64,000 nt of DNA from Antedon mediterranea (Eukaryota; Animalia; Echinodermata): positions 18,432,871-18,496,870 of the forward strand of contig NC_092676.1 in NCBI RefSeq assembly GCF_964355755.1, written 5' to 3'. Position 1 is the first letter of the stretch; each line of letters opens with the position of its first letter. Below the pieces are notes generated by a model. It was not told where the DNA came from. It made no database searches and saw nothing but the letters and a program-made list of their open reading frames with translations. The translations under genes were made by a program, and so were the position numbers. Shown here piece after piece: positions 4,781 through 63,696 of the stretch.

Positions 4781-5587
4781 TGAAGTATAGAGCCCTCGAG
4801 TTGGCAAGCATGGGACGGCATCTACTGAAGCATAGAACCCTTGAGTTGGCAAGCATGGGACTGCATCCACTGAAGCATAGAACCCTCGAGTTGGCAAGCA
4901 TGGGACGGCATCTGATGAAGCATAGAACCCGCGAGTTGGCAAGCATGGGACGGCATCTACAGTACTGAAGCATAGAACCCTCGAGTTGGCAAGCATGGGA
5001 CGGCATCTACTGAAGCATAGAACCCTCGAGTTGGCAAGCATGGGACGGCATCTGATGAAGCATAGAACCCGCGAGTTGGCAAGCATGGGACGGCATCTAC
5101 AGTACTGAAGCATAGAACCCTCAAGTTGGCAAGCATGGGACTGCATCTACTGAAGCATAAACCCTCAAGTTGGCAAGCATGGGACTACATCTACTAAAGC
5201 ACAGAACCCTCAAGTTGGCAAGCATGGGACTGCATCTACTGAAGCATAGAGCCCTCAAGTTGGCAAGCATGGGACTGCATCTACTAAAGCATAGAACCCT
5301 AGAGTTGGCAAGCATGAGACTGCATCTACTAAAGCATAGAACCCTAGAGTTGGCAAGCATGGGACTGCATCTACTGAAGCATAGAGCCCTCAAGTTGGCA
5401 AGCATGAGACTGCATCTACTAAAGCACAGAACCCTCAAGTTGGCAAGCATGGGACTGCATCTACTGAAGCATAGAGCCCTCAAGTTGGCAAGCATGGGAC
5501 TGCATCTACTAAAGCATAGAACCCTAGAGTTGCCAAGCATGGGACTACATCCACTGAAGCATAGAACCCTCAAGTTGGCAAGCATGG
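4781..5587. repeat. 45-bp minisatellite (~18 copies) downstream of the DNAAF3 stop
   Basis: Unit TGAAGCATAGAACCCTCGAGTTGGCAAGCATGGGACGGCATCTAC; it explains the 15-aa-repeat ORFs on both strands. Confidence 0.95.
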
Positions 5588-36814: not shown

Positions 36815-37342
36815 ACATAGATACAACCTAGCTGCAATTTTGCAACTTCCATAATCTAGCTGCAATTCTGCAACTTCCATTACATAGATACAACCTAGCT
36901 GCAATTATGCAACCACTCTAACATAGCTGCAATTTTGCAACTTCCATTACATAGATGTAACTTAGCTGCAATGCGATTCTGCAACTTCCATTAAATAGAT
37001 GCAACCTAGCTGCAATTCTGCAACTTTCATAACCTAACTGCAACATCTGCAATGTCTATTTCATAAATGCAACCTAGTTGCAGTTCTGCACCTTCCATAA
37101 CCTAGCTGCAATTTTGCAACTTTCTTTACATAGATATAACCTAGCTGCAATTCTGCAACTTCCATTACATAGATGCAAGCTAGTTGCAATTCTGCAACTT
37201 CCATTACATAGACACAACTCGGCTGCAATTCTACAACTTCTATTACATAGATGCAACCTAGCTGCAATTCTGCAACTTCTATTACATAGATGCAACCTAG
37301 CTGCAATTCTGCAACTTCCATTACATAGCTACAACCAAGCTG
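36815..37342. repeat. Degenerate 39-bp minisatellite downstream of the Myb stop
   Basis: Unit CTAGCTGCAATTCTGCAACTTCCATTACATAGATGCAAC; gives 13-aa-repeat spurious ORFs. Confidence 0.9.
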
Positions 37343-37523
37343 CGATAACACTATATATTTATTTATTTACATACGCAATGAATTCATCAATCAGTCTTCT
37401 TTCTTGATTTTCTTTGGTATAACTTCTGTGACTTCATCGAAAAAAATATATACTTGGAAATCTATTTATGTTAGGTAAACACCTACACAAATATAAGTAT
37501 AAAGTTTATTTTGATTGATTATT

Positions 37524-40500
37524 TCAAAGTTTTAATGATCTGGGTCTCATGTTACTGAACAAGTACTTCTTGGCTTGCTGTATGAGGATGAGCTGGTCAG
37601 CTGTCTGGCCACACGCAACTGCTTCCCATGCCTTGTTCAACTGTTACAAAATTAAAATAACATTTTTATTAAAGTTTTATAGTCCTAGGGCCTGTAATTG
37701 TCAAATTATCTTGTAGGCTAGATAGAGATGGGGTCCAAGGGTGCGGACCTCATACTTAAGAGGTCTCAAAATGATATAGGCTTTAATAAGGATATTATAA
37801 TTAACCCCATTTTTAAAAGTTACTTTTCAATATCATAAACTCTTCACAGACCATATGAAATTCACTTGTTGCAGACATCAAATTGCCTACAGAGAACCCA
37901 GATATAAAATAACAAAAACAAATCATAAAGGCACAGAGATGAGAAAAATGATTAAGCTTCGTTCCGACTGGAACACAATGCAAGGATGTAACTGCACCGG
38001 AGTAATTTGACCAATCACAACGCGATGGATTATCCAAGCTGTCGCTGTGATTGGTCAACTGACTTGCATTGCGGCCACATGGAACCAAAGCTTTAGAGAT
38101 AACAAAACAAAAGTACTGACCTTAATGGGAGGCTTAAATGGAGTTTCATTGATTTTCTTAAAATCTTTCTTTGGTCTGTATTTACTGATGCTAGTCTGTG
38201 CCGCTGGGGCTACAAAGCCTTGGTCAAGGGTAACAGAGAAACTGTCACTGCTGCTGTTAAGTTTGCTAGGCCTATCAGGTGACATTAGGAGAGATGAATC
38301 AGCCAGAAGAGATGAGCTCTACAATCAAACAATTTCGTTAAAATTTCAATGGAAAAGAATTCATTAGGCTACAAATAATTATAACCTGTGCCATGTCATT
38401 GGTTAATTTGTATCACATGCTATGCATTATTTACTGCTATTCTAATGACTCTTTTTTTGTAGATATTTTTAGAATTGAGTGTAATGCACTAAGCTTATTA
38501 ATAGGCATTAGGAAATCCAACAGTAGTTACTGAAAAAATGATAATTGCTCTACCCTGTGTTTAATTACAAAGTACTGTACAGCATTTTTTAATGTTCCAC
38601 ATTTTTATTATTTTTTTAAATATTCGATTAAAGATGAAAGCGACAAATGAATACACCAAATGTCCAATCCATGGATACACAATTTCTTCATTAAAATGTA
38701 TCTGTTGATTACACTATCTTTGCAGCACTTTATCGCAATGTATCTTACAGTGCATGTGTGGATATTGGCAGAGTACAGATTGCAAAAAAGTCATACAGCA
38801 TCATCTTTCTGAACACACAACAATATTAATTCTCTTGAAATATGTTAGTATAGTGCTTTTTTATATGTGAACTTACCTGTGGCTGAACCTGGTTGGCAAT
38901 GTGGTCCAAATTGGTTATATTAGGAGGAGGAGGAGGTGCAGCTGACTGATTGATGTTAGTAAGGGGTAGTAAGTGACTCAACAACTCTGGCTCTGAACTA
39001 AAATTCTCCAATGATGGTAGACTATATCCACCCTAGGATTAATACACACACAATGTTGATGTTGAAGGTTAGTTAGTGAAAAAATACAACTAGAAAGTTT
39101 TATTAGTGATTTGTGCAAAGCAGCTTTTTAAATTTTGTAACAAGCGTGTGGCACAGTGTGTTGGACATTGGACTAGGTGAGATCGTGGGTTCGAATCTAA
39201 GGCTTGTCACATTGCTTGTATCCTTAGGCAAGACACTTTACTTATGTTTACCTCTCTCCACCCAGGTGTACAAATGGGTACCTGGTTTAGGTCAAGACAC
39301 AACTGTGCGCTGATTACTAGCTGCATTATGGGAGTATGTTTCCATACATTTAAAAATGACCGGGGTAATGATAAGTATTTTAGAGGGCACAGTGGAATTC
39401 TCTCTCTAAAAGAAGAGTATAAAAAAACATTTCTTTTTTTTTTGTAATGTTATCTAACAAATTTCTTTTTTGTAAAAATAAAACAAATAGCTTTATAAAT
39501 TGTAGGTCCCAGATGTTTTCAAGCCTGACTTATTCTTTAGCTACTAATTAGTTGCAATTGTTGCAAGTGTCTGACATTGAAATATTATAAATATTCATTA
39601 TTAATTAACATACTGTAAGCACAAAAGATGGCAAATTTGTATTCGTAGAAATTCAGAAATCAGGAATTATAAATGAAAGATAAAATTAAATAATTATCAG
39701 GAAATGAGATGGGTTTTTAAGTAGAACTGTCGACGTTAAAAAAGCAAACGTTTTATAAGTTTTTCAAACAGCATCAAATCTAGTATATTTCAAACGAGTG
39801 AATCATGCGCAAAGCTTTAAAATGATGGTAAATATGTAAAATCCCTAGTCATACTATTGTATATTAATGCAGTGAACCAATAATTAATACGAGATACAGT
39901 ATAAACATCATCAATGCTTAAGCATTGGGCAATTAAAAAAGAAATACGCCTGAAGCAATAATGATAAGAATTAAAATTAAGGTGCAAATGAAAGGTGTGT
40001 GATAAGCATTAGGTTTATACTTTAATTAATCTTTCTCAATTACCAAATATTAAAGAACCTGAAGGTCCATTAATAAGTTTGATATATTACCAGATTTTCG
40101 GAACTCACTGTATCTAGATTTCTCCCAATTCCATAATACATCATCGCTTGTGATTCACATTACATGATATAGATCACATGTGATATACATAAATGCTGTA
40201 TAATGGAATTGTTCTGATACAGGGGAAACATTGTATGATGTGGAGATACAGCAATGAGAATCGGGTAATATAAAGAAACTATGTAAAATGTGAGGCAAAC
40301 CATTATGATTCTATATTTCAAACTCTAGTTTTTCATCTAATTTCAAAATATAGAATCATAATTTTTCAAAGTTTGTTTTATCATATGATATTTAATAATT
40401 AATGATAAAAAGATGATGTGAAAAGACAACAAAAAATGGCGATAGAACAACACCATCCATGCAGTAGAGAAAACGGTCGAAACTATGACTCGACTTTTAT

Positions 40501-43500
40501 TTACCATATTTGCATCATCGGACAAAAGACTGGAAGAATCACGGAAAAGCTGGCGAATTATTGCATTGCTATCAGGATTTAGATACTGTGAGGACTGTGA
40601 GATAGAAAAGGGTTAGTTGTAACAGGTTAAAAAATAAAACTATTAAAAGTAAAACAAGATAAAATGTCGTACAGCCAACTCTGTCAATACCATACTCTGT
40701 CCTAAAAGGTTTCAAATTCTTTTTTACTATTAAAAAAACACATTTTAAGAACCATAGACCTGTTCAAGCTTAGTTATTTACCTGGATAAGTTGGCAATCA
40801 ACCCACAAAAGTTAGCGATATGTGGTTCAGGAAGTCAACTTAGCAGATATATAACTAAGTCTGAACAAGGTCATAGGTAAGGATGTTCAGTATTGAGAGT
40901 GTTAGCGTATTAAAAAATCAATTAATTTAAATTGTCCATATTTATTATTATTATAATAAAAGGAAGCCAAGTTAGTAGATATATAACTAAGTCTGAACAA
41001 GGTCATAGGTAAGGATGTTCAGTATTGAGAGTGTTATTGTATTAAAAAATCAATTAATTTAAATTGTCCATATTTATTATTATAATAAAAGGCATTATAA
41101 AATTGATTTAAAAAAACAAAACATTATAAAGAATAACTAAAAGTTTAAAATGGTTAAGTAAAATATAAAAATTAAGATTAACAGCAAAATCAACCTACCT
41201 TTTATCAGTTTAGTTAGGTCTAAAAAACTTAAATTTAAACAAGTGCCAAACCAGGACATTTCTATTTGCTTAAATCCTGCTACTCACTGGCCATCAACAT
41301 TTTTTTTTAGCACTAAACATTTACTCAAGATGGTTACCATGATTTGATTACACTGGATATGCTGTAGGTGGCAATTTAAAACCATCAAAATGGCCATACT
41401 AAAAAATAAACCAACCTACCTACACTATTTTTCAACCTGTTAAGTCAATATAACTTGTTTAGGCCTAATACCAAAACACAATGAATTAACATAACTACTT
41501 TGGTCGTTGTAAAGACCACAGTCACCATCATCAATGAATTAATAACTGTCTAAGTAAGCCTTATGGGCCAAGAGGTCAGAAGAGGTTAGGTAAGAAATGT
41601 GTAAATAATAAGAAAACTTACAGGAGTTTCCATTGTTCCAGGCATAGTGTAGAAGTAGTTGTTTGTGGATTTCTTTTCATCTGCCCAATGGTTGCTCAGT
41701 GTTTTTCTCACTTTCGTTGTAGGTGTATCAATCTGCAAAACAAAATTGAAAAACAAAATTACAAAGTATATCCTTTGTCCTGAAACAAAAGAATGCTATT
41801 ATACTGTAAACAAAAGAATGCTATTGTACTGTAAACAAAAGAATGCTATTATACTGTAAACAATATGTGCAGTGTATACAATCATGTGTGTGTACTTAAA
41901 ATACCTAAAAAATGTATCAGGTACATATCATCTTGTCATGATTTTCTGAGAATGTAGTAAAGTGAATTTAAGTCAAATCATATTTGCAATCTATGAATTA
42001 TTGATTTGTATTGGTTATTTTAAATAAAGCTTTTAATAATACAGGTTATGGCCTGGGTCTTATCACTAGGATGCCAGCCTTCGTTCAGAAAATTAAGGAT
42101 CTACACCTAAGCCTGTGTACTTCCACCCGCATAGTGGAATAGCTCGACGGATGAGCTCTACTGGAGATTACAAGGTCAGGTGATACCAAGATCAGTCGTC
42201 ATATATCTAAAGTTCTGTCTATACTATCAAACTATTTTTACAAAAAAAGTGTGGTGTGCCCATGTATGGTAGTGATGTGCCCAAATATGGTAGTGATACA
42301 ACATCATCATGTCCATATATGGGCACATCACATTTTGTTTGTCACATCAAGTTTGATAGTGTAGACAGAGCTTAAGTATGTGATGTATACATTCAAAGTA
42401 AGTGTTTTATCCTGAATTAACTACTTTTAACTCCTGAAATTACTACATCATTACCTGGTTATGGTTCCTCTTTTGTTTCAGGTCAGACATTTCTTCCTCT
42501 TTCTTGATGATCTCTGATAAGTCTTCCACAAGATGATCTGGTGTCTGGGGCTTAAAAACAAAATGACAAAATGTTTCAAATGTTAATTCTTCCTCAGATT
42601 GCTAACTACTTAAGATTTGCCATTTGTTGCTTAAATACTAATACCAATACTAATTCTATCTAATATATAATTACACTACTTACTAATTATACTTAAGTAA
42701 CAGCACCTCCATTGTAGTAAAACAATACACACAGAATTTTAGTTAATTATTAGTATTTTAGTTATACAAAGAGAAATATTTTGATACAAATTTACAGTTT
42801 TTATAAATGGGAAAGAATTCTAGTACACTTTCTTTTGAAAAAATTACTCACCAGCCTGTGTATAGGTCCACCCTTCTTCTCCAAGGCTGCAAGTGCATCT
42901 TTTAATGGTGTTGGTGTTCTTGGAGTTTCCAGCAAAGCTCTGCGAATCTTAGGTGTCCTAAAGAACCCACTAGAATAAAGTATAAATTGGATTAAAAAAA
43001 ATAATCTCACATAAACCAGTTAAGATTTATAGACACTGGTTAGGCTGTAAGTTAAAATTACATTTAAATTAGCAACCTAACTAATTGGTCATCAGTTAAG
43101 ATTTATAGGCACTGATAGACACTGGCTGTAAGTTTAAATTACATTTAAAACTAATTGATCATCAGTTCAGATTTATATTCACTGTGAAGCTCTGTCTACA
43201 CTAACAAACATTGTTTGTAATCCATATTGCCATCCATAAAATACACAATACAATACATTATAGTTTGAAATTAACAAAATCATATAAAAACTAAATAATT
43301 ATACAGTTATGGAAAAGCAGAGGATAACCCTTTAAGCTGGGAAGCTTGTTTCAGAAGGGAGTTATACAAAATGTGATGTGCCCATATATGACAAGATGAT
43401 GTTATATCACTACCATACTTGGGCACATCACAATTTTTTTGTCAAAATAGTTTGATAGTGTAGACAGAGCTTAAATGATGAGATATCATAAAAACACTGA

Positions 43501-46500
43501 TCAAGTCCTAACAATCAAAAGTATTTTATTAGTAAGTAGTAAAAACCCAAAAGTAGAATAGAAAACTCCACTCGAAAGTTATTTTTCACTACTTCTTCAC
43601 TGTTTCATTTGTAATTGTTTCCCCTTTTTCCGTAGTCATCTGAATTTATGACATCTACATCCACAATCTGAAGATATATGTTATAAACCACTCTACCTTT
43701 AATTTTTCTTTTTATGTAATCACATTGTAATGTTTTTTCTATTATATTTTGTTAATGGTGGTCTCTGCTTAAAGTCTATTTCTAGACTTATTTTGACCAC
43801 CATCCACATTCATAAATATTTAATGATTTATCAAGAAAATATATGTATTATTTGTGGAAAATTAATAAACAACAACATAGCTTTGAAACTTTTTTCAAGA
43901 TATAAATAAGACTTGTTACAGGACAATAATACTTACTCTGGTAAGTTTTCCTTATTGCTAGGTGTTTGGGTGAATAGCTGTGGTGTGCTAAGCAGACTGC
44001 TTGTACAGGGTTCCACCTTTGAGATTGGCGTCGATGTTAACTGTTGCTTACCAGGGGTAAATCCTATTCCAATTGGACTTGAATTAAAGAACTATAATTG
44101 AAAAAAAAATGCTAAGAATGAATATAACATCTTTGTAGAATTTGACATTATTTAATAGATGTAACTATTATATTAATGAATGAATTTTTAATGGTCATTT
44201 TGTAGTTTTAATAAAATTAATCACTTCCGCAGAAAAACAAAATTTTAAAAATTGTGTTTTTGTTAAATTTAATCAAAATTTAGTTTTTTAGGTAATCATT
44301 TTTTTCTCTGATCTAATTTTTGGTCAAAGTGAATAACTATTATGCAATATCAAATGGCATTTTCAACAACAAAATTTGACAAAAAAAAAACAATTTCAGG
44401 GGGACAATATATCTTTAAACGATAATAAGTTTATTGGCAAATTGGACACCAATTTATTGTTATTATTTTTCTTGAAGTGTAATAATAAACAGAATACTTT
44501 ATAATAATTACCTGCGATGGAGAGAATGTGAGAGGTTTAATGGGTGTGGTCTTGGGTGTGCTCGAGTCCTTAAATATCTTGATATCGGGTGTCTTTAATA
44601 TACTTGAATTACTACTCCTTGTACTTGTATCCAAATGCTTTTACAGAGAATTAAGAAACTAAACATAAACAAAACTGCCCTAAACTTGATAGTTTCAATC
44701 CTCATTTTTTAATTTAGATGATTACATAAAATAAAACATATCAATACAAAGAAAGCCAGTAGCCCCGGATTTGATGTCTGATTGTATTTTTGTATAATTG
44801 TGTATCGTTTATAAAAGGCCCTCTTCAAGTCAGCTGTACTGCTGTAGTACAGCTGATAGAGATACCCTTGTAAAACAAAGTTGAATAAATATTAAATAGA
44901 AGTGGATAATACATTTTCAATATGCAAAATTACAGATTTTATGTACATTTTCATAACAAAAGTTATTTTTTACAAACAACAAGAGCTATGGGAGAGTTTA
45001 CTGAATAGAGAAAGTATTGTCATAAATTTCAGAAAAACATAAATTGGAATAATGCACTTACTGTTTAAATAAAACGATCTTAAACATCATAATATTGAAT
45101 CTCAATGGCAAGATTTCGGATTTGGCATAATTATATTTTTAAATAATATCAAAGGATACTGATCGCCTTCGCTTTTTCCTCAGTATGGTTGGTGGAGTAC
45201 TATACTTGGATGTGACGGGCGAAGTGATCGGTATCAGACGCCCTGATGTGTCTTTGGACAAGGACGAGATGGCATGACCATCAAATCGATATCCTAAAAA
45301 AAAACATTAGACATTTTATTTGGACTTATTATTACAAATTGGGATGAACTTAATTATTCATAAAAAATTATGTAAAAAAGTGAGACATTGTTTGTAATAG
45401 AGTTGTATAGTTTTGCTAACTTAACAGAGGCAACAACACTAAACTAAGGAAAGATAGACAATAGGCATTAGATTCAATCTTTCTCACAGTAAAAACAAAT
45501 CAGAACACTAGCCGCTACGCCAAATAAACATTCAGAATAATAATAATTAATTACAGTAGAACTTCTCATTTGGGACACCAATATAAACCAGTGGACACTC
45601 CTATTAAAGAGACACTTTGTTGGGTCCCAAAGAGTCCCCTTAATAGGGGTTATTTACTGTAATTAGCATACCTGTGGCTCCCTTTTGATGAAGCTTTGAG
45701 AATTTAATTGGTGTAGCAGTAATTGAGTCATCATCACCGAGAAGCATGTCAAATGTACTAAGGTCATCCAAATGTGGCTCTGGGTCTAGAAAGTTTGTAT
45801 CAGGCATATCTGGTAGATCTCTGAATAACAAAAAGGTATAGTTAGTAGTAGTAAAACATTGACATGGTGAGATGAAATATGGTGACATGTAAATGGTGGT
45901 TTATATATCCAAACTCTAATTTAATAATCAACTGCCCTTTCATGTCAAAATCAATGTACTACGACTTAATGCTCAATACGACAGAATTCAGATATAATCC
46001 CATCCTTCAAAAAAACTAATGCAATCCAAGTATATAATCCCACCTTCTGGTGTTATTTAATTTAGCAATAGATTAATGGGATTACACTAGGTTACATACA
46101 GTTTGAATGACTTTCCAGAAAAATCAAAAAGTCTATAATGTTTAGTTATTTAATCAGTATATTTTGAATATATATAATATTAAAAACCGTTTGGAAAATA
46201 TATGTAAAAAATAAACAGTAGACAGTTGGAAAAATTAATTTCAATTGGGTACCTGAATGGAGAAATAACGCCCTCATTGTCCATAACAATCCATCGCATT
46301 GGACTCGATTGCGCATTCATTCTGCCAGACATCTGTGTCGATGTTGAAGGTAACATGTTTCGTCTCATGTTTGTTTGAAGAATACCTAAAGATAAATTTT
46401 TTAATTAGCCTTGACCATAGAAATAATTCATGAAACTGTTAATAGTTTATTAAACGTGTTAATATTTTAGATAGGATGATATTATTTTAGATGTTCTTTA

Positions 46501-49500
46501 ATTTACAGAACAGTTTTTTTTTAACACACCAAATATAAAATAGCTTATTCTATTTTACATAAGTTAGAATAATTCTTAAACCTACAGGTAGAACTATTGT
46601 ATAGTCTAGTGGATGAGGCGTTACGGCAGGGGTACTGCAAACCATACCTACAAAATTGGCACAGGTTCAAGGCTATCCTTTCTCTCTATTCTCGGATAAG
46701 GAATTAAAACTTATGTGCATTTTAAAGAACCCAGTTCATCTTTCAGTAGGACATTACCACGGTGTACTGGTCCACCTCAGCCCGTCATTGTGGACAGACA
46801 AACGGGCACTGTTTGGTGGCAATTGTACGACACAAAGGATCCTTAAGTGACAAGAAAGTTGTTGTGTTTGTGTTGTCCACGTTCACACCTGTGCGCAATT
46901 CAGTCCAATAGGCTGTGAGTCGCAGATTATTCCCCAACATTTAATAAGCATAAACAACTTACTTCTCAGGCTACTATCTTGACAGTTGCTCTGTTGAGTA
47001 GCTAAGGCTGCATTACTGCTGATATACATAGGGTAGGGATTTGACGACTTGAAAAAAAAAAAAATTAAAGATATAAAAACATGACGTGACAATCCAAAAA
47101 CAATGGAGAGAATGCATTGTATTGAAAATAGATAATCAACAACTCTTTTTAATTATTATTTATTTAGTAATACTATATTAATACAAAATATATGTATTAC
47201 AAAATGCTATGTGCTATTATAGGACCCAGAAGTATGGTCAAACAATTGGATCTATACCCCATCAACTAGCAAATGACCTCATTTGACAGTCCTTATTTTA
47301 GGTAACGTTCTTAATATTTACCTGTGTATATTGGTAGTTGCCCGCTACCTGGTTCCTGGGTGAGTATGGGTTGGTTTTACTTTCTGCCTTTTTTTTCATA
47401 GTCGAATTCCAGTGGTTCTTAATTGCATTATCAGTCCTGACGCAATAAATAAAAACCAATTATTCATTTTTATTCTTATACACAGTACATACTGTACATG
47501 ACTTATGTTTTGAAATTCACCTGAAATGTGTGACCACCTTTAATATGAAAAAAAAATATGGTAGTGATTTGACATCATTTCCATATATGGGCACGGCATT
47601 TTTTTGGAACATTTTGTAAAACCGTCCAATGAAAAGAGGTTAGACAGATACAACTAAATTACAAACATAAAGGGGTACATTAACTGCGGTAATCATTTAC
47701 CTTCCAGGAAGCAGTTTGGCAATCTCTGCCCATTTGTTACCAAGACGCTTATGAGCTTCATAGATAATACGATCTTCTTCAACCGTCCAAGCACATTTCT
47801 TTATGTTTGGGTTCAGATGATTATGCCACCTGAATAAAGGAAGATATTATTACTAATATTCAATCTAAATTTTTTTAAATTAAAATTCATAACTCTAAAT
47901 GTATGTTACTGTAGCTACTGTGATTTAGGGAAATTTACATAACTGGTAATAGCGAAAATGAATGTCAATTAAGGGGATTAATTATGGTTCACCAAAAATG
48001 TAAGGGTTCCACAAACAATTAAAAAATAAGTCAGTAGAAAAAATAGTGACTTGACAAGGGAAGCGGAGATGAAAGTGTTTGTACAACGCTTTGAGATGGG
48101 TACCATATAAAGAACAATACAAATACATTTATGCTGTTAGAAGTCTGTTTTTACACTCACAGTATATCCCTGAACGCCTTTTTATATCACTGTGCTGTAC
48201 AACTAAAAATGGTAGTATAGTAACTGATTTTAATTGTGTTTGGAACCTACCTTAAATGTTTCTGCAAAATATTACCTACATTGATGGAATTTCAAAACTA
48301 TTTTCCTCAACCAATTGTTTATAAATACACTTTAGGCAATTTATTTGATGCAACACAATTTCTCAGATTATACACATACTGTACACAATCAGATTCACTT
48401 GTTAGGTACAATTTTTTCTTATTTATGATTGATATTAAATATGAATAAATATTATAAGAATACAAAATATTTTTACACCTACCGTTCCCTGCACTGTTTG
48501 CCTGTACGCCCAGTAAGGTACTTAGAGATAAGAGACCACCTTTTTGGGCCCAACTCCTTGACCAATCTAACGACCAAATCATCCTCCTGATATACAATTA
48601 ATCAAGTGAATTTATTAATAATAAAAGTGGTGTCATAATGTGTGCAAGAGAAAGAGAAGCAGTGCTGTACCAACAAGAGAATCTCAGTAGCCCCTACTCT
48701 AATTAAACTAAGTATATCTTAATGTATTGGTGCATCTATTGAAGATAGTCCTAAGTACGTTCTGTTCTGTGTCTACTGTTAGGACACTTAAATCAAATTG
48801 ATGCTGTATATTATTGAAACAAAGAGAAGTACCATGCCTACAAAAATGAATCTCAATAGCTGTTTCTAATATACTAGACAGTAGCACACCTTTCATTTTG
48901 TGACACAAAGAGACATACAGTACCATGCCTACAAAAAGATAGCCCCTAGCTTCTATTACAACTCGGACCCACATTCATTTGGATCAAGTTCCATGTCTAT
49001 ACAGCGAATCAAGCATCTATATCTGTAGACTAATTTTCAATCTCTGTATATGGTATTTTAATTTGGTCTGTGTATTGGAGCATCTAGAAGTGTCATGCAC
49101 AAAGGATGTATACAGTACTGTAGTACAATTTATCCTAACAAAACAATCTAAACTATAGTTTTTTGTGTGCTTCTCTCTTCGTTGATAACATCTTTTCTGT
49201 AAACTTTACAGTAACACTAGCCCTGTACGCAATCTGTTCCTTCTACTGACATCTTTTAGACCAATGTACCTTCCACAATCATTTTATACCAAATACAGTA
49301 TTCTACAATAGTACTACTTGACATTTGTGTGTCCACCAATTACAACCAGCAATCTCATAGCAACTCAGTACAGTAGATGTGATTGAACTAACAGTACGTT
49401 AAATTACATAGATCGATATATTGTCTCATAACCATTGTACTTACCATGGTAGTTTGACATAGGGTCCTGGAAGTACAAATATGCTATGTACCTAACCTGG

Positions 49501-52500
49501 CTACCTACCATTGTGTATAAGACACGTCACAATTGTGTTAGGCATACAGTACCTTTCCAGTTTCTCTGTTCTTCCTGATGGCAACTACCTCATTTGCAGT
49601 ACCTAACCTATCTACCTACCATTGTGTATATATAATTGTGTTAAAGCCTAGGCTAGCTGACCAGTATACCTTATTCTTTCTCAGCTATGAATGACCATAA
49701 ACATGGTCCATATGCCAACTGCCTGCTCATCACCTGCAGTACCTACCATTATACACAAGACATACCATAACTGTGTTAAAGCCTAGGCTAGCTGACCAGC
49801 ATACCTTATTCTTTCTCAGCTATGAATGACAATTAACATGGTCCATATGCCAACTGCCTGCTCATCACCTGCAGTACCTACCATTATACACAAGACATAC
49901 CATAACTATGTTAAAGCCTAGGCTAGCTGACCAGTATACCTTTCTCTACACTGTTTCCCTATTCTTCCTGGTAAATATTCAGCTATGAATGACCATCGAC
50001 GTGGCCCATATATGCCAACTGCCTGCTTATCACCTGCAGTACCTAACCTGTCTACCAACCATTATACACAAGACATACCATAACTGTGTTAAAGCCTAGG
50101 CTAGCTGACCAGTATACCTTTCTCTACACTGTTTCCCTATTCTTCCTGGTAAATATTCAGCTATGAATGACCATCGACGTGGCCCATATATGCCAACTGC
50201 CTGCTCTTCACCTGCAGAACCTAACCTGTCTACCTACCATTATACACAAGACATATCATAACTGTGTTAAAGCCTAGGCTAGCTGACCTGCATACCTTTC
50301 TCTACACTGTTTCCCTATTCTTCCTGGTAAATATTCAGCTATGAATGACCATCGACGTGGCCCATATATGCCAACTGCCTGCTCTTCACCTGCAGAACCT
50401 AACCTGTCTACCTACCATTATACACAAGACATACCATAACTGTGTTAAAGGCTAGCTGACCTGCATACCTTATTCTTCATGGTAAATATTTAGCTCCAAA
50501 TGACCATCAACATGGTCTATACACAAGACATATCATAACTGTGTTAAAGCCTAGGCTAGCTGACCAGTATACCTTTCTCTACACTGTTTCCCTATTCTTC
50601 CTGGTAAATATTCAGCTATGAATGACCATCGACGTGGTCCATATATGCCGACTAAGTGAGCTATCATATCATCTTCCTACAGTGCCATGAAATGGAAATA
50701 TGTGCAATGTGAAGAAAAAGAGCATGCATTTTACATTACATACAGTATGCATACATTAACTAGTTTGACAAAAAAAAAGTGATTTGCTCAAATATGGTAG
50801 TAATATGCTCAAATATGGTAGTGATGACATCATCGTGTCCATATATGAGCAAATCACATGTTTTTGTCACATAAAGTGTGATAGTGTAGACAGAGCATAA
50901 GAATAGCAAAAAACATTTGAATAAATACAGTATATTAAAAGTAGACACTACCAATCTCAGACTCTCTCAGACTTTTCTTGAGGTCCACAAAGTCCCAAAT
51001 TTTGTTTTAAAAAAAGTAGAAGTGTTTAAAAAAGATGATGATCGGATACCAGACTTTCCAGAAAAACCAGACTATAATTAGCCCAGGGTGTTTATGTTTT
51101 TAAATTTATTTGTAAATAAATAGATATTCATATTTCTGACAAGACCTGTACAATAAATATGTTAAATAAATTAGTTATTTTACTTCTTTTGTCCATGGTC
51201 CTTTTACAAGGTCAGGGTTCAAAACCTTTTGCCATCTCTGGATACAGTGCAACTCATTTCGGTCAACATAACTAGCAATCACTTTCCAATCGCTACAACC
51301 GTGGTAATCAACTGCATTTCTTAACTTGTCATCCTAAAATATAATTGAATTGAAACTTTGAATACAATACATCACTAGCATTGATCTACTGTATAAGTGT
51401 ACAGCAGATCAATCATTTATTTATTTACTTCAACAACAATATTTTATTTCATTTTTTTTTTTATTATACTTTGCTTAATGAGGGTGACTCAAAACAGCCA
51501 AGGATGTAATGCATGAGCCTGAGGCCGTCAACGAGTGGGTGGTCCATCCAGCGGAACCTTATCATTAGAAACACTCGGAACAATACTGACAATTTATATA
51601 TAAACATCAAAACTAATTGCCAGTGCTGATTGTTTGTATATTGTTATCCACAAATTCCCATTTTTAGAATGTAAACTAAATAGTTTCATGTAACTTGTAA
51701 CAAGTTGTAAGCAGGTTTGATCTTCCAATTTATTACACATTATCATATACATTATCGTTATAGCAAACGCACTGTGAGAAATCGTGGAGGATAGCATAGT
51801 TGATTGGATTTGTATGATTGGTCAGTTTAATACCAGGGCAATACCCATGTGTTCAGTAACTCTGAACAAAAAAAAACAGGCCTTTAATCTGTGTTTTTTT
51901 CCAAGATTAACAGGGGTCCTTTGTGAAATCTTGGGAGATTTTTCACAAAATAATCTTCACACCATGCAAACCTGGTTATAATTGTTACTACTTGCAGGTG
52001 TGAAAAGGGAATAAGTTACCTCTTCTTTTGTCCATTTACTACTATTTGAAAACCTTCTTGACCCTGGAAATAACCCTTGACTGCTATCCTGATCACTGTA
52101 GTCACCATAGTCATCACTAGAATCACTATCATAGCCACAACTACTGTATAAGAGATACAATTACAGTATTTTAAAAATATATTCAATTCAACAAACATTT
52201 ATTTCATCAAATGCCATTCAAATAATACAAAGCATAAAATGTGGACCAACCTAGTAGAAGTAAAACTTGTCTCAGTTGGCCCTTTAACATGGTTACAAAA
52301 TAATAACAAAATTCAGGATACATTAATAGCAATCGTTTAGCAAATATACTGGCTAATTACTAATTTAATAAACTTTATTCACTTTTAAAAATATTACACT
52401 AATTTCATTAAAATATAGCGCGTCATAATTGACCAGTCACAAGGTTAATTCATTATGCATTCCGATTAATTACCCACCAAAATATAGAGTATCATAATAT

Positions 52501-56051: not shown

Positions 56052-59000
56052 TCATAAACAGACTTTACGTCTCTTTCTTGTGTTGCGACTCTTCTCGCTA
56101 GAATTGTCTGAATCTACACTGGAATCTTGATCCTTGGTTGTCCTACTGTACGTCATGTTCGGTAAAAGTCGTTCTAAGATTTCAATAAACTGTTCCTCCA
56201 ACTTTTCTGCATGTATGACTTCTTCCGAGCCCTTCTGAAACACAAATAAACAAAACACTTTCTAAACTATTTGTTATTGTCATTGTTGCATAGTAGAGTC
56301 TCCTAAGGCAAGTATATTATATACAGTCAACTCCGCCTAAGTCGAATTTGTGTAAGTCGAAAAATCGCGAAAGTCGAATTTTTATGAAAGTCCTAATTCT
56401 TTCCTATACATTACTGTGCAATTTTTATTTGTAAGTCGACGTCTTTTTGCGGTCCGAATACACACATTCTTTAGTGATTTATATCGTATAAGTCGAAGTC
56501 ATAAATCACGCGGCAACAACGAGCTAAAAAAGCCAATGAAAAGTAAATAATTCGATAAAAAAACGACAGAGGTGATAATGTGGGACCATATTGGTTCTCT
56601 CGAGCACGTTGTATAGTATAGGCGGCATCCTACAACTCGCGCTAGTATATACTGTACGAGTTGTTTTAGAGTTGAGAACTTGAGCGGCGTTTTGTGGGTA
56701 CCCATTTTGTGTTAGACAGATGGCAATATAAACAATGGATACCGATTTCGAATAAGAACCGAAATGTATTTATTATACGTTTTCGTATTGTTATGACTTA
56801 AACCATAAAGAAAATACAGTTGCTGATAAAAGAGGCTTAGCGTTTATTAGGCCTAGATAGCTAAGAAAACTCAATTCAAGAAGACTACAGGGCAGGGTCT
56901 ACAAGGCTTAGCCATAGCGCGGCTAGTGAGTGAACCTATGCCTAGCATTTTTTTCACAAATCTGTTCAAGTCGAAGTTCACATAACTCAAATTTTTATAC
57001 CGGTCTGATTAGATTCGACTTAGGCGGAGTCGACTGTACAAATATTAAGAAATCATAGGACTAAAGATGAAATAATCAGCTATATCAAAGAACTGATTGG
57101 TAGAAATATGTTGGTAGGCTGACAAGTTTCATGCATAGATATACTATAAGAACAAGATCAACTCCAAAATGGCGGCTACGACCAACCATTCGATACATTA
57201 GTTATAAACCCTATGCCTAAAATATTATTTGTGCATTTTGGATACAAAAATTTAAGTACAAACCTTATAGTAAAGCTCAGCATTGGTAAATATGAGTTTT
57301 ATATCCAATATAAAGCTATCATAATTATTGTATTCTAAGCATAGCGTCCTAGTTTTAATCGTCTGTAGATCCACTGGGTTCTTCACTACTTTGTAGTATT
57401 TCTTAGCCTGTAAAATAAAAATTAATTAATTAATTAGGAATAATAGGAAATAGATTCTTGGTAATTTTCACTGTATCAAGGGAAAATTCAGATACAGTGT
57501 GTCCTGTGTCACATGTGAACCCTTATCATAGGCTATAAAGTTAACCTTAAAATAATATACCAATCAATCAATGCCGCCAAGTGGGTATTCGTGTAGAAAG
57601 TTGAACATTTTAAAAAACAATTTAAAGTTTGAGAAAAATATGTATAAAATAGCCAAATATAAGAAAATAATGCTACAGTTAGTTAAGTGATGTACAAAAA
57701 TAACCATAATTTGTTTGAAGTAATATTGGTATGCATTACCTCTTTCTTGTCAATAGGCTTTCTAAACAAAGCACTGTCCTTTGATTTGTTTAATCTGTAC
57801 AGTATATCTTCAAGAATCTAAAAAGAAAAATACAAGTCATATAAACAGTCAGTGCACCAGGAGACACATCTACAGCTCTACTTGCGCAAAGAGAAACAAT
57901 TACAACGTACAGTTTAACTAATTGCATTTGAACACACATACGCAATACTTACTCTAGTTTCAAAGGCTTGCTTGGCCTTCTTCGTTGTAGTAACTTGATC
58001 ATCCGAATCATCGTCGTCATATCTTATTCGTTTTCGTGAAGATTTATTAGCGGATTTCTTAGTATTCTTTAATCTCCTTGACTTCGTAGTTCTCTTTTTA
58101 CCATGTGTACATTCGTTACACGACCACTTTCCTCTACAAAATAAATAAGAACATTTTTGATTTATCAGACTGGAAAGTTATTTGGTGGAATTAATTTAAG
58201 CTAGTTGAGCCAGTTGTGAAACTGCTATGAGCACTCACGGACTACATTCAGGGTCCTAGAGCAGTGCAAAAAAAAAAACCCATTCTCAATAACAGTAAAA
58301 AAAGTATTTAGAAAACGGACCTAAAAAATAAATAACTTCCGTCATTAACAGGTCCTAGGCTCTCAGCATTAGAGAGCCCTTAGGGGCCTTAAACTAGGCG
58401 GTTAATTGACCTTGCGTTTCTCCACTACAATTAGCCAGCCTAGGATAATCACTTACCTAGGAAAGTTCCTTAGTGGAGGCTCATGGCAGTCTCTATGATA
58501 GAAGCTTTCGCATTCGTAACAGTTCAATAATTCTCCCTGTTCATCACAAACACAACAGTACTGCTCTTCTTCCTCTTCATATTCACTCTCGTTGTCGTAA
58601 TCTTCAATAACCACGCGGTTTCTGGCGGTACGACGAGGAGTTTGAGGCTGGGAAAAGATAACATTTTATTTAAATGGAAATACTCAATTCATGAGCACTC
58701 ACAAAAGTACAGACATCAACCAATGTGAACAAATACAATGGAACCTCTTCTTTGGATACGCCTATTAAGGGGACACTTTCCCATGAAATGAACGAGGGGA
58801 AATATGTTTCAACACTACAGTCACCCCCTATTAAGGGGACACTCCTAATAAGGGCTCTATTAGTACACAGTGAAGGATGGTAACCATCAACGCCAAAATA
58901 CAGTGGAGCCCCTGCTATTAAGGGGACACTTTTCACCTTGAAAAGGTTCTATTAAGCTCTGTCTACACTATCAAACTAGTTTGACCAAAAAAGTGTGATG

Positions 59001-62000
59001 TGGCAAAAAATGGTAGTGACATGTCCAAATATGGTAGTGACATCATTTCCATATATGGGCACATCATATTTTTTTGTCATAAAGTTTGATAGTGTAGACA
59101 GAGATTTACGTAATAAAGGACGTGGCAACCATACCTTGCAAGATGGGCATTTCCATTCTCCTTTTGGAAAAGACTTTAATACAGGGCGTAAGCATGATAG
59201 ATGGAATGGTTGATTGCAATCATCGCAAAGTATAAGCCTATTTTCACTGCTCTTCTTCCTGCAAATTTTACATTTTGCGTTCTCCGCAGACTTCTCCCAT
59301 TTGACGCTAGATTCAAAGATACCCAATAGTACATGAAGTCGTGAAAGGGTGGTGGCGCTTTCAACTGCATCGCGCCACTTCAGTATTTTTTCTGGAACTT
59401 TAGGTTCATCAGATTCTAACAAAAAAATTTAAAATACAAGTGTACCTTCTTAAACATGGGAAACACTAGAACATAATGCCTAAACATTGGGTTATAATAA
59501 TTATAGTTTCATATGTAGAGTACAACATCATTCAGCAATAGGTATTACGAATGAATGTTATTAAACATTGAACAAGAATAATGTGAATTCGTTTTGTGAA
59601 TTGAATTGAAATATTTTATTTATACTTGGCGACCTCTTCAGTCAAAGACTGGTCTCCCAGAGGGCCCAGTTATGATCAGTGGCTGTGATGTACCAATACA
59701 CCGGGGTAACCCCTACTCGTCTCGAAAGATGTACTAGGTTCTTTAAAGTGCACATGAGCTAGATGTGTACACTGGACCTACGGTTTATAGTCCTTATCCG
59801 AGAAGACTCGTTCTACCACCAGAACCATGAAGTGAGTGAGCCTCAAACCCCTGCCGATGTTATGGCTACGTAATTACGGTTCCACTGTCTTAACCGCTCG
59901 GCCACTCACTTTGTACTTTGTTTGTTTGTTGTATTTGTGTCTTACATGAATACGATAATTCTAAGTATATTGTATAGTACCATACAAATAACGTTAATAA
60001 ATGGAAATGATATCCCACTGATGAAATGAACTACAGTGTACTCAGTAAAAGCTAGTTAACACTTACACAGTTAAAATGTCAACAATAATCTCATTGTAAT
60101 GTTTTTTGTTAAAGTCTAGATTTATTGTAACTACCATCCACATTTATAAATATTTAATCATTTATTAAGAAAAATATTAGTATCATTTGTAGAAACTTAT
60201 AAACAACAACAAAGTGACCATGTAAATCTAAAACTCCCTAAACATACCTGGATCATCAGAATCGTTTTCCTCCAATCTTACTTTTGGTTTCTTCATTGCC
60301 ATAATGCCCTGCAGAAACCGTGGATTTGTAGAGTTCTGAGTCTCAATAAGCAACGCACCCTGTTAAAAACATTCAAATACAATAAAATTGTATGTAACTT
60401 CAAGAATTGAAATTAAAGATATATTCTCCCCAAAAAGATGAAAAATGAAGATTAATTAAATCATACTTTGAATATGTTATTTTGTAGTTTTAATTCTACT
60501 TCCCTAGAAAAAAAAACCCGATTGTGTTTTCACTTATAAAATGACAAAATAAATTGTTAAATTTAACCAAAAACTCATTGGCTGGAAGTCAATTTGACCA
60601 AGCTTTAAATTACAGGTAAATAAGTTTTGATCTAATTTTTGGTCAAAGTGGATAACTATTATGTTACAGTAAAATTGCATATTCAACAACAATTTTGTTA
60701 AAAATTTTTTTTTTTCAGGGGGACAATACATCTTTAAATTTAGGCAGGTTTTTATTTAGCATTGGCATAAATTTCCTCTTGGCTACCCAACTACTTATTG
60801 CTTTGTATCTGATGGCTAACATTGAGACTAGTACTAGCTTTACATAATTAGTGCCAGATCAAAAGCTCCCTTACTGAAATATACCCAATCATGATAATAA
60901 TTTATATTTTGACATATATTATGTCATTATTATTATTAATGACTTAATTACTAACCAGTGTTTCTAGATCCTCTGCTGTATTCAAACTCTTCTCCCAAAC
61001 TTGGAATGAGTCCACCCCTCCCAGGTTTCCTTGTCGTATATGCTGCTCTTCATCTAATAGGTCTTCTTTGAAAGCAGTCAGCAGGTCCTCTGGCCCATTG
61101 CATGCTCTTAGTCCAGGACTAGACCTGATTTTGAAAACAAACATTATGTTACACAAGAACAGGAGCACAAACTTTAATAGGGGCACTTTCCTGTGAAACC
61201 ACTAACAAGATAGATTATACAGGAGACACTACAGGTCCTGGAGGTGTCCCTTTAACAGGTGTTCTACTTTATTTTAAGTACTGGTTGTTTGCGTATAAGT
61301 ATACTTTCACAAGATTAAGTGCACGTCAGTGTACTGGAAAGTGCAATACAGACAGAAATGCCATTGAAATTGGTAAGTGGTCATAAACTGAAGAAAAACC
61401 TACATCTCAACGTAGTATGTAATATCTGAAATTCAATTCGCAGCGGTAACCATTAATATTAATGTGTAATGAAAATTAAATATGCAGTGTAGTATAGTGG
61501 CAATGTTTCTTATGTCTGTAGGCTCTTATATACAAGATGTATAATAGATGGAGAAGTCTTTTGTAAGTACAAGATCTGAGCTAGAAGCTCATTTTTATTG
61601 AGATAGAAATATACAATAAAGTTCTTGGGGCTTTTTCTAATTTGTTTGGAAATTGATTGAAAAATCTTTGCTATTAAAATGAATGTATTAACGTATGTAT
61701 GTACCTCCTTGCCAGATTGAGTGACTTGACAATGTCTTGGTAACTTTTCTTGAGCTCTACATAGAGGGTGCTTTCACGTATGCCTTGGTTGTTTATAATC
61801 TCCATCAATGTATCTAGGTCCTTTTGACTGTCATACTGAAACCACATATTTTGACCAACCTTTGGAATTCTATAAAAACAATATTGATAGATTTATTGAA
61901 TGAGTTATTGTATTGGAATTACGACTCTGTCTACACTATCAAACTTTATAACAAAAAAAATGTGATGTGCCAATATATGGACACGATATCATATCACTAC

Positions 62001-63696
62001 CATATTTGGGCCAATCACACTTTTTGTAAAACTAATTTGATAGTGTAGACAGAGCTTTAGAAATATAATATTTTAAAAAATACGACTAGAAATTTCAAAA
62101 TTCATTCTTAATTGTAATTTTTATACCAAATACTAACAAGGAATAGAAATATATTAACTTTGAATATGTATAAAAAATTTAAATAGGCCTACACAACTAT
62201 CTCTAGTAGTGATTATTCTGAATTCAGAATTTAAAATTATGGTGGACTTATGGTGTCTCATCAAAATAGGGGTGAGCTTACCCGCATCAGTTCGGTACTT
62301 ACGTTAACTCTACACCTTCTGTGGGCAGATCCGAGTCGTCTGAATCTGAATCACTGTCGTCATCTTTGAATGAATTGCCAATCTCTTTACAAGCCCAACC
62401 CTTCTCAACAAAAAGTCCAGGTACGACACTGGAGAACAGCCAGTAACGACTATGATTACGATCAACACCTAGAGGCTGGTTTCGCAATATTGACTTGGCT
62501 AGTTGAATACCATCCTATATATGAAACAATATGAGACAAAATTGAGTACAATCATTTCCAAAGCCAAGTTTCTTAATGTAAACAAATATTTTTTTATATG
62601 GTTCGTCTCCATATCATTATCATAAAGGCCAATTGACACAGACAAGTGGTAACGGTAAGCAGAAAACCAAAATAGAATCCATGTTATTTCTTATGACCAT
62701 TTACACAAAATGCAGAGCACTGCAGATGAACAGTTGAGCGGAAACATGCTCAGGATAAATACAGATTCTATGTGGGACAAGCTACATGGTTTTTCGCTTA
62801 CTGTTACCGATAAGATTGCAGTTAATATGCTAAAAAAAATTTTAGGCCACTAGAAAAACCTTATGCCTTCCATACCTCAAACCGTCTTTCAAACGACTCG
62901 GCTTCACGCTGTTTTCTTAATTCCTCTAGATCTTTTATACGTCGTTCTTTTTCTTTACGTTCTTGCTCAGCGCGTTCAACCTTCATTTTTGCAGATTGCA
63001 TACGTCTTCTTTTGATGACTGTAATCAAATCGTTTTCGTCTTCTGGAATAATTATTTCTTCTTCCTTCGTATTCTCCTTAGCTTTATTTTCAGTCTTATT
63101 TTCTAAAAAAAAAAAGTCAATAAATATTTTAGCATTCACAAATACCAAAATGATTAGTACATCAATTAATTTTATAAGAAGTAGACAATTGATTGATTAC
63201 CAAGTTGTAGATCACCGAAGTAAAGCAATGTTGGGCCAGGTTAGAGCTTGGATGGGAGACCATTTGGGGATTTCAGGTTATGTATATGGAGCTGGGGTCC
63301 CATTAGACATTTAAAATCAGCACTGCTGACTTTTATGGCACCCCTGCATCTAGTATCTGCCTCAGATATATTGGCATATGCCTTACCTCTGGTCAAGGTG
63401 GGCACTGGATGAGAGAAGCCCTCAAATCAATGATAAGACCAACCAAAGTGCTTTAAACAGTCCTTCCATTATTCAGATAAATGCAAGACTAAGGCACCTT
63501 GATGCCGTCTTATTTATGAATGGAATACTCAATATCACCTTTTTTAACTTCTTTGTCCCCGTTCTTTGCTACATTAGGCTTCTTCTCCTGTTCCTCCTCC
63601 TTCTTAAGCCGCAATGCTTCCTTTTCTTCCCTAATTTTCTTCTTTTCTTCCCTCACTCTATCATTTTTTTCTTTCAGTGTTTTCAGTTTCTCTTTC
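56052..63696 (-). CDS. BAZ1B: BAZ1B/WSTF-like chromatin-remodelling subunit, 3' half (WHIM/WSD region, two PHD fingers, bromodomain); 5' exons lie beyond the window end
   Basis: Exons 63539-63696, 62876-63102, 62303-62514, 61705-61869, 60956-61124, 60248-60359, 59135-59415, 58457-58647, 57953-58133, 57740-57817, 57264-57407, 56052-56234 (TGA); phases are consistent. Motifs PLGVDRNHSRYWLFSSVVPGLFVEKGW, PKVGQNMWF..GIRES and SRLHVLLGIFESSVKWEKSAENAKCKICRKK match WSTF. Confidence 0.92.
56324..57036. mobile_element. Non-autonomous Tc1/mariner (pogo/Tigger-like) element in the last BAZ1B intron
   Basis: TA|CAGTCAACTCCGCCTAAGTCGAAT ... ATTCGACTTAGGCGGAGTCGACTG|TA, with subterminal AAGTCGA repeats. 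Confidence 0.85.
58955..59105. mobile_element. Tourist-like MITE family B copy
   Basis: TTA|AGCTCTGTCTACACTATCAAAC...GTTTGATAGTGTAGACAGAGAT|TTA; it forms the spurious tail of ORF 58976-59422. Confidence 0.85.
59595..59910 (-). mobile_element. tRNA-headed SINE with Deu/Nin-like central domain (other copies ~21633-21980 +, ~32740-32885 -, ~46608-46790 +)
   Basis: Minus strand: A-box TGGCCGAGCGGTTAAG, B-box-like GGTTTGAGGC, core CTCGGATAAGGACTATAAACCGTAGGTCC...TTAAAGAACC...GAGTAGGGGTTACCCCGGTGT, and a (TTCAA)n tail. Confidence 0.7.
60417..60733. mobile_element. TTAA-flanked (Kolobok-like) non-autonomous element; partial second copy ~44180-44413
   Basis: TTAA|AGATATATTCTCCCC ... GGGGACAATACATCT|TTAA; the internal sequence is shared with the 44.2-44.4 kb copy. 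Confidence 0.7.
63210..63284 (+). pseudogene. 5S rRNA-derived fragment (pseudogene or SINE3 head), antisense within a BAZ1B intron
   Basis: GATCACCGAAGTAAAGCAATGTTGGGCCAGGTTAGAGCTTGGATGGGAGACC resembles the animal 5S internal control region (GATCACCGAAGTTAAGCA..GGGCC.GGTTAGTACTTGGATGGG.GACC); the 5' ~40 nt are missing or degenerate. Confidence 0.75.

Follow-up and report, generated by a model that had tools for sequence, protein, structure and literature searches.

The TCF3 (E2A) gene carries mutually exclusive homologous exons which encode the E12 and E47 versions of its bHLH domain and alter affinity but not the core site, and both the use and the function of these exons are established. 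They resemble the pair of Myb exons considered here, 4a and 4b, in that a choice between duplicates of one exon would exchange a portion of a DNA-binding domain, although the domain of TCF3 is a dimerising bHLH. A second example is FoxP, in which the tandem-duplicated forkhead exons of Drosophila (isoA and isoB) and of vertebrate FoxP1 are used in an either-or manner (PMC3002244). As in Myb, the duplicated FoxP exon covers part of a helix-turn-helix DNA-binding domain and the peptides are about 60% identical. The FoxP pair has persisted over hundreds of millions of years, with one copy near-ancestral and the other less constrained and lost in some lineages, and the Myb pair may be likened to it in this respect. 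Both FoxP isoforms were, though, demonstrated by RT-PCR, whereas 4a is known from genomic sequence; the FoxP pair belongs to a different family and is bilaterian-wide, whereas the Myb pair has been seen in two echinoderm classes only; and, unlike in FoxP, the two Myb copies have the same base-reading residues.

Vertebrate c-Myb likewise yields several proteins from one 3R-Myb gene (exons 8A, 9A, 9B, 9S and 10A), and the vast majority of this splicing is reported to involve exons for the C-terminal part, without alteration of the DNA-binding domain (PMC3154906); in the crinoid Antedon, by contrast, the exon choice would fall within the second repeat (R2). The animal R2 exon is nearly frozen and is spared by vertebrate Myb splicing, hence the interest of a second copy, which, if conserved, would reveal another diversification route for a cell-cycle regulator and provide a natural test of whether the R2 cavity trades stability against binding. 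The c-Myb cavity mutant V103L and the V117D change of v-Myb alter the same two positions as the alternative exons (PMC3203581, PMC7910556; PDB 1h88, 1h8a), and the alternative exon of the sea cucumber Apostichopus japonicus has exactly the Leu103 of V103L. These are engineered or viral point changes, whereas the alternative exons add 11 to 18 others, with effects that are predicted. No published description of paired Myb R2 exons was found in the literature; the sea cucumber isoform is already in RefSeq.

The Antedon Myb gene and its two R2 exons

The host gene of exons 4a and 4b is the 3R-Myb of Antedon mediterranea, which lies on the minus strand of the window, a stretch of 64,000 nt. Coding exons 2–19 span 37523..52143 (the first coding exon is unmapped), and translation of these 18 window exons reproduces XP_071955932.1 (RefSeq) exactly. 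The protein (P0092) contains Pfam PF00249, PF13921 and PF09316, and its three repeats and C-terminal Cmyb_C place it in the animal 3R-Myb family (c-, A- and B-Myb). Exon 2 (52020..52143) precedes exon 3 (51184..51333), which encodes R1 and the start of R2, ends with GPWTKE and is 100% identical to Antedon Myb; in the exon map exon 5 (47701..47829) completes R2 and carries the larger share of R3, and exon 6 (47322..47436) encodes the R3 recognition helix.

Between exons 3 and 5 lie two adjacent homologous exons, 4a (50573..50676), which is equivalent to c-Myb 99–133, and 4b (48483..48586). The earlier note on this DNA had described both, at these positions, as stop-free exons of 104 nt, bounded by AG/GT, running from phase 0 to 2 and encoding the peptides it gave, all of which proved accurate on the minus strand, and a recount agrees with its figures of 22 identical residues in 35, 14 of the 22 specified by different codons, the split Arg codon included. 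By whole codons, the residue is the same at 21 of 34 positions and the codon differs at 13 of these 21, while nucleotide identity is 61/104. Each exon alone passes the Pfam Myb_DNA-binding cut-off of 24.4 bits, 4a with 37.7 and 4b with 45.1. All the residues that mark the family R2 (W115, K128, C130, E132 and V103) are found in 4b, and all but V103, which is I103, in 4a.

As in known mutually exclusive pairs, the two exons have equal length and phase and their own splice sites. Either one singly preserves the frame from exon 3 to exon 5; omission of both shifts the frame into a stop in exon 5, and the frameshift claimed for direct 4a-to-4b splicing also leads to a stop there, so that both-in and both-out messages are predicted to be nonviable. 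The Nei-Gojobori comparison of 4a with 4b (pS 0.85, with silent sites saturated; pN 0.28) supports the claim that the duplication is old and has been under purifying selection, as do simulations of neutral decay, in which a copy was scored as intact if it had no stop, retained AG/GT and kept at least 21 identical residues, indels being ignored. With 0.3 changes per site, 341 of 20,000 runs gave such a copy; with 0.5 the count was 5 of 20,000, and with 0.75, 1.0 and 1.5 it was none of 20,000 each time. Purifying selection on both copies is indicated by the 4a–4b comparison and, for 4b, also by the R2 exon of Anneissia (33/34 residues identical). Across 32 distinct types of animal R2 exon, 16 of the 34 columns are invariant, and 4a retains 14 of these 16, the exceptions being V103I and K113R.

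Other origins of 4a were considered and rejected: a chance ORF, on the neutral simulation and the Pfam Myb_DNA-binding score; a two-allele assembly artefact, on the saturated silent sites and the single-copy depth of the intron in DNA runs; and a copy of R1 or R3, since the ends of 4a match the R2 exon alone.

Exon use, splice signals and the tandem array

Exon 4b is the default R2 exon. It is present in both Antedon RefSeq isoforms, and one contig of RNA run X1 joins it to exons 3 and 5. Exon 4a is absent from both isoforms, an omission from the current annotation that is flagged here. The junction mapping suggested in the earlier note was thus borne out for 4b; for 4a, no contig joining it to exon 3 or exon 5 was seen in this one run, nor did any loose end of exon 5 in X1 carry 4a letters. 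The missing junction is no evidence of absence. Run X1, whose spliced junctions mark it as RNA in contrast to the DNA-like X2, X3 and X5, consists of contigs only, of unknown strand; rare forms are dropped and junction pieces of 30 letters a side may be missed. In the mapping that yielded the join through 4b, 23 of 30 bins were without cover; in the mapping that gave the contigs over 4a, an intron repeat swamped the junction and loose-end listings.

The best explanation, to which we give a probability of roughly 0.6, is that 4a and 4b are tandem R2 duplicates kept intact by selection, with 4b as the default and 4a as a likely minor, mutually exclusive alternative that probably predates the split of the echinoderm classes. 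The weak acceptor would account for the default omission of 4a, and some particular tissue or stage would bring its inclusion. A message holding both exons or neither would reach the stop in exon 5 and undergo nonsense-mediated decay, which would enforce the either-or choice. Steric exclusion is ruled out, since 1,986 nt separate the 4a donor from the 4b acceptor, and no pairing of the docker/selector type was detected, between 9 and 38 of the 40 shuffles doing at least as well in each of five splice-site duplex tests; nor did inverted repeats show pairing above shuffles. Neither route of exclusion is required where decay enforces the choice.

Immediately downstream of 4a, at 49545..50565 on the minus strand, lies a tandem array of partial copies of this exon, not noticed in the earlier note, in which the 3' 79 nt of 4a, the donor and the start of the intron are repeated. 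Three of the seven copies are near-identical to 4a and four are broken. The three young units measure 173–178 nt and place three donors near-identical to that of 4a downstream of it; they also provide candidate in-frame cryptic exons of 83 nt that lack helix 1 (50296..50378, 50118..50200 and 49940..50022), with weak acceptors. In 3 of the 4 broken copies the codons for R113 and R114 have lost their CpGs, which 4a retains; this contrast counts in favour of the tandem-duplicate explanation.

It is conceivable, if unlikely, that 4a was long a working alternative exon and has recently died in Antedon, put out of use by the tandem copies of its 3' half together with decay of its acceptor, stops having not yet accrued. 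The absence of 4a from the annotated isoforms would fit, as would a young array with three competing donors. The acceptor region (50677..50736) is AG-free for at least 58 nt, with its pyrimidine run at some distance from the AG; it matches the other acceptors of the gene poorly, with a score of -2.8 that ranks near the bottom (leave-one-out scores run from -5.1 to 13.5), a repeat element lies about 80 nt upstream, and record 2 of X1 passes unspliced over the acceptor into the intron (50615..50745). The score is, however, crude, as at least three constitutive acceptors of the same gene also fall below zero (values listed: -3.8, -5.1, -0.9 and -0.7). Moreover, the older array copies are about 15% diverged and broken whereas 4a is intact, the three young copies differ from 4a by no more than one synonymous change in 79 nt, and a sea cucumber has an annotated alternative exon.

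An improbable alternative is that the main role of 4a is that of an off switch, whereby slow splicing or retention of intron 3, or joining of 4a or an array copy to 4b, would yield truncated or degraded messages and less Myb in non-dividing cells, the 4a protein being minor. The exon 3 donor (GTAAAA) is weak, with a score of 2.1, the second lowest among 17 donors; record 6 of X1, in which exons 2 and 3 are joined, continues past it for 9 letters only, and read-through from exon 3 meets a stop after two codons. A 100-aa record from Asterias and a 113-aa prediction from Apostichopus also terminate just past GPWTKE. The bin depths on 4a in X1 (11.8, 17.9 and 12.2) are wholly accounted for by two unspliced records, but ordinary nascent RNA also yields unspliced contigs, and a poison exon needs no Myb residues kept at a silent-saturated distance.

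The sea cucumber pair and the predicted second domain

The tandem-duplicate explanation does not depend on Antedon alone. The RefSeq isoforms X1 and X2 of Apostichopus Myb (XP_071850981.1 and XP_071850982.1), of 701 aa each, differ only at residues 100–128; RefSeq thus annotates two apparent versions of the R2 exon, and the pair would be independent support for the either-or reading. The mutually exclusive switch put forward in the earlier note accordingly gains from this pair, but the two copies do not stand on an equal footing, 4b being the default. The alternative isoform has three PF00249 stretches and PF09316, and its R2 forms three helices in a predicted model built on alignment rows that are mostly b-type.

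The two alternative exons are identical at 18 of 34 positions. They have R113 and F117 in common, residues that are found in none of the 32 canonical types and that occur together in none of 41 unselected and 1 of 56 4a-selected Myb R2 stretches, and in none of the stretches listed for 143 further representatives; V103 is replaced in both, by I in 4a and by L in Apostichopus. Both have A119 and 4a also has I126, as in hemichordates, whereas the echinoderm main exons have S119 and T/S126 in 9 of 9 cases, among them 4b (V103, K113, L117, S119 and T126). These shared residues speak for a common origin of the two alternative exons, and by them Apostichopus provides, at the protein level, a second class with the exon pair; a tree from the 34 columns does not resolve the branching.

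A b-type R2 exon was found in all 17 sea-urchin and sea-star proteins having that exon and in the one Anneissia protein. A search with 4a returned no echinoderm protein, its 91 matches being Mybs that are unnamed or come from plants or protists. A profile search among representatives, where 50% clustering hides isoforms, showed no other alternative exon of an echinoderm in its best 150. A pattern scan of metagenomes covered 25 of 64 parts and gave 120 loci, from which 29 animal-like ones were chosen by eye and 91 dropped; a second R2 exon was present in none of the 29, 11 of them extending from the R1 exon as far as the R2 exon, with R3 also reached in 5 of the 11, and the sole echinoderm-like locus (L050) having only 537 nt of upstream DNA. 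One R2 exon type per cluster was seen in 15/15 shark and 15/15 mammalian A-Myb members listed, and no second R2 exon was seen in the non-echinoderm isoforms or loci examined.

The c-Myb numbering used in the earlier note (V103, V117, K128, C130 and E132) agrees with the PDB chains (1h88, 1h8a) and with PMC3203581, and the residue differences it listed were found, position 103 being I in 4a and V in 4b, and position 117 F and L, respectively. K128, C130, E132 and all of R3 are identical whichever R2 exon is used, so base reading is predicted to be kept. The 4a isoform is predicted, by analogy with c-Myb (PMC3203581 and PMC7910556), to have equal site specificity with different R2 dynamics and a different partner surface: its R2 core would be fuller and stiffer and its outer surface altered, I or L at position 103 would lower the flexibility that c-Myb binding requires, and F117 would change the surface mutated in v-Myb. 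Plant and protist Mybs also have I or L at position 103 and F at 117, so these residues can arise twice and need not weaken binding; Myb2 of Trichomonas has Leu at the 103 position yet is described as flexible (PMC3203581).

A broader reading, which we put forward tentatively and at somewhat less than even odds, is that echinoderms have had an R2 splicing switch since before crinoids and sea cucumbers split, toggling positions 103 (V versus I/L) and 117 with the base-reading residues kept, and giving a second Myb of low affinity or with different partners. If true, it would be a natural V103L experiment, by which a group with a single Myb gene gains what vertebrates could reach only by gene duplication, and an unannotated second R2 exon would be expected in intron 3 of sea urchins and sea stars.

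It is very improbable that 4a is in use but that the crinoid and sea cucumber R2 duplications were independent, with convergence in R113, F117 and the bulkier residue 103. In its favour, separate, species-level duplications are compatible with the AU tests (p 0.36 and 0.26), as is a shared origin (p 0.52), the required changes (K to R, L to F, V to I/L) come readily and are seen elsewhere, and urchins and sea stars are without an annotated alternative exon, but two identical private changes would be required, together with reversals of 4a to A119 and I126 and of the sea cucumber exon to A119 after fixation of S119/T126. The mechanism would be the same as in the best explanation and only the history would differ; such a history could take over about one-third of the weight that the functional readings carry.

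Two R2 exons in the Antedon Myb gene

Exon 3 (e3; 51184-51333, on the minus strand like all Myb exons) identifies the gene as Myb: it matches Antedon mediterranea Myb at 100% identity and Anneissia japonica Myb at 94%, and XP_071955932.1 is the exact translation of eighteen exons of the window, including the R2 exon 4b (48483-48586). Exon 4b is used by default, as the b exon is found in both Antedon RefSeq isoforms and in the sole Anneissia protein. The two Antedon isoforms (769 vs 717 aa) differ by a 156-nt in-frame cassette exon at 38877-39032.

Exon 4b and the candidate alternative exon 4a (50573-50676) are each 104 nt long, stop-free, bounded by AG/GT and of phase 0 to 2; these features, the coordinates and the peptides in the earlier note were all reproduced from the sequence. 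The same residue is encoded in 21/34 whole codons, by a different codon in 13 of the 21, and 61/104 nucleotides are identical; silent sites are saturated (pS 0.85) and pN is 0.28. In simulated neutral decay (20,000 runs at each rate), a copy counted as a survivor if the frame and both splice sites were intact and 21 or more residues remained identical; 341, 5, 0, 0 and 0 survived at 0.3, 0.5, 0.75, 1.0 and 1.5 changes per site. Exon 4a retains 14 of the 16 columns invariant across 32 distinct animal R2 exons (the canonical types, drawn from 246 animal proteins), departing at V103I and K113R (c-Myb numbering). The old duplication under purifying selection that had been proposed is thus borne out, and the pair is real, old and constrained. 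The most likely reading of 4a, with a probability of about 0.6, is a minor mutually exclusive exon with a shared echinoderm origin. Judged from sequence comparison, the signal shows constraint over a long time and says nothing of present use; a 4a recently dead in Antedon is unlikely, but the foremost alternative.

A complete R1-R2-R3 domain is formed by e3, 4a and exon 5 (e5; 47701-47829), and equally by e3, 4b and e5, and each R2 exon alone exceeds the Pfam Myb cut-off. An off-switch role for 4a is improbable. Inclusion of both exons, as the earlier note said of direct 4a-to-4b splicing, or of neither, would shift the frame and run translation into a stop in e5. Steric exclusion is ruled out by the 1,986 nt spacing, and inverted-repeat and duplex tests at the 4a/4b locus found no RNA pairing above shuffles; the likely enforcer of an either-or choice would therefore be decay of messages with both exons or with neither.

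Transcripts, splice sites and the 4a array

Contigs of four of five sequencing runs were aligned to 50480-52300 and those of one run to 47620-49480; runs X2, X3 and X5 behave like DNA and X1 contains spliced joins. A 185-nt X1 contig holds the last 20 nt of e3, followed by 4b in full and 59 nt from e5 (joint CT..AC) and, in spanning three exons, shows e3-4b-e5 splicing. Another spans the 4a acceptor unspliced (62 letters exonic, 69 intronic) and so does not show splicing of 4a. Of the junctions proposed earlier for checking, those of 4b are therefore joined, and no spliced 4a was seen in X1, where contigs of a single run do not allow absence to be inferred.

An X1 contig joining exon 2 to e3 extends 9 letters beyond the e3 donor; this read-through (51175-51183) meets a stop after two codons. 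Two protein records (P0343, P0346), one of 100 aa from the Asterias cluster and one of 113 aa predicted in Apostichopus, likewise end directly after GPWTKE. Splicing of intron 3 may be slow in echinoderms generally. At window position 51174 there is a polymorphism, immediately inside intron 3: in one sample, three DNA runs break at 51175 and have roughly half the depth beyond, and X1 diverges there too.

Scored on a small matrix built from the splice sites of the Myb gene itself, the 4a donor ranks as average (6.3) and the e3 donor as weak (2.1). The 4a acceptor is also weak, at -2.8 in a range of -5.1 to 13.5, and has no further AG within 58 nt. As a minor exon, 4a would need an activator to overcome its weak acceptor. 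About 80 nt upstream of that acceptor lies a high-copy short repeat with inverted arms (50758-50904), very deep in DNA runs and present also at 42230-42379, 58974-59103, 28306-28409 and 47554-47606.

Overlooked in the earlier note, a tandem array between 4a and 4b (49545-50565, minus strand) consists of repeated copies of the last 79 nt of 4a together with the donor and the beginning of the intron that follows. Three of its seven copies are each separated from 4a by one synonymous base; deletions or a stop disrupt the other four. In three of the disrupted copies, which may have a common ancestor, the R113 and R114 codons no longer have the CpGs that 4a retains. The three near-identical, young copies could supply in-frame 83-nt cryptic exons that lack helix 1 and have poor acceptors.

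The sea-cucumber counterpart and the origin of the pair

Among echinoderm cluster members, two Apostichopus japonicus isoforms of 701 aa, XP_071850981.1 (isoform X1) and XP_071850982.1 (isoform X2), differ from each other at residues 100-128 and nowhere else; this stretch is the R2 exon that corresponds to 4a/4b. An either-or choice is thus annotated in a sea cucumber, in agreement with the mutually exclusive splicing suggested earlier for Antedon. R113 and F117 are common to 4a and the sea-cucumber alternative exon and occur in 0/32 canonical types; as a pair they stand in 0/41 unselected and 1/56 4a-selected Myb R2 stretches, and in none of those listed for 143 further representatives. V103 is replaced in both alternative exons (by L in the sea cucumber, by I in 4a). 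Both alternative exons retain A119, and 4a also I126, the residues of hemichordates, vertebrates and cnidarians, whereas all 9 main exons of echinoderms carry S119 with T or S at 126; in the simplest reading of these residues, the copies would have diverged before the echinoderm classes split. Separate duplication in crinoids and sea cucumbers, with 4a still a minor mutually exclusive exon, is very improbable against these shared residues. Points against an early split are that the two alternative exons are identical at only 18/34 positions, that the R2-exon tree is without any starred branch, that AU tests reject neither origin, that Owenia and Haliotis have S119/T126 too, and that F117 and I/L103 recur in plant and protist Mybs.

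The b-type was found in 17/17 urchin and sea-star proteins having an R2 exon, a count informative on annotation only. The sea-cucumber alternative exon also carries R114E, I126S and G127S; its domain is predicted with three R2 helices (mean pLDDT 84.8, pTM 0.53), which points weakly to a three-helix fold, the alignment rows being mostly b-type.

In non-echinoderm Myb, the R2 exon was present in 86 of the 99 listed members of 10 clusters, with a single type per cluster, and no second R2 exon was found in 29 animal-like metagenome loci (chosen from 120), 11 of which span R1 exon to R2 exon. Two animal R2 types, HGTKxWAVIAK (L002, L003, L066) and YGPKxWxAISK (L006, L043, L057, L077), share the 104-nt exon; as each lies beside its own R1 exon, duplicated exons were rejected in favour of separate genes or species. 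In three ciliate-like loci (L048, L049, L067), about 1 kb separates two Myb motifs.

Predicted isoforms and neighbouring features

In the account of PMC3203581, c-Myb contacts bases through K128 and E132 in R2 and, beyond R2, through N136, N179, K182, N183, N186 and S187. K128 and E132, noted earlier as identical in 4a and 4b, and the six residues beyond R2 are unaffected by the swap, so the same DNA site is predicted for both isoforms. R2 of c-Myb owes flexibility to the cavity that V103 leaves, and Leu lowers it, yet Trichomonas Myb2 has Leu there and is flexible (as described in PMC3203581). An echinoderm-wide switch of the R2 cavity is a tentative proposal. Residue 117 is presumably part of a partner surface. 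One of the v-Myb changes is V117D (as given in PMC7910556; PDB 1h8a).

No description of a duplicated Myb R2 exon was found in the mainly open-access literature covered, and supplementary exon catalogues might list the pair. The E12/E47 exons of TCF3 work in like manner to Myb 4a/4b. So does the FoxP forkhead exon pair, ascribed in the text of PMC3002244 to tandem exon duplication. Alternative splicing of human c-myb, as outlined in PMC3154906, mostly alters the C-terminal part and spares the DNA-binding domain, whereas in Antedon the choice would fall within R2.

One minisatellite, of 39-bp units (36856-37343), directly follows the stop codon of Myb; another, of 45-bp units (4781-5587), is open in several frames. 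Upstream of Myb on the same minus strand, exons at 58976-59428, 57914-58177, 60944-61201 and 62861-63196 belong to a PHD-finger gene, presumably BAZ1/WSTF-like, and plus-strand exons at 1218-1490 and 3786-4139 to a DUF4471 gene, presumably DNAAF3-like.
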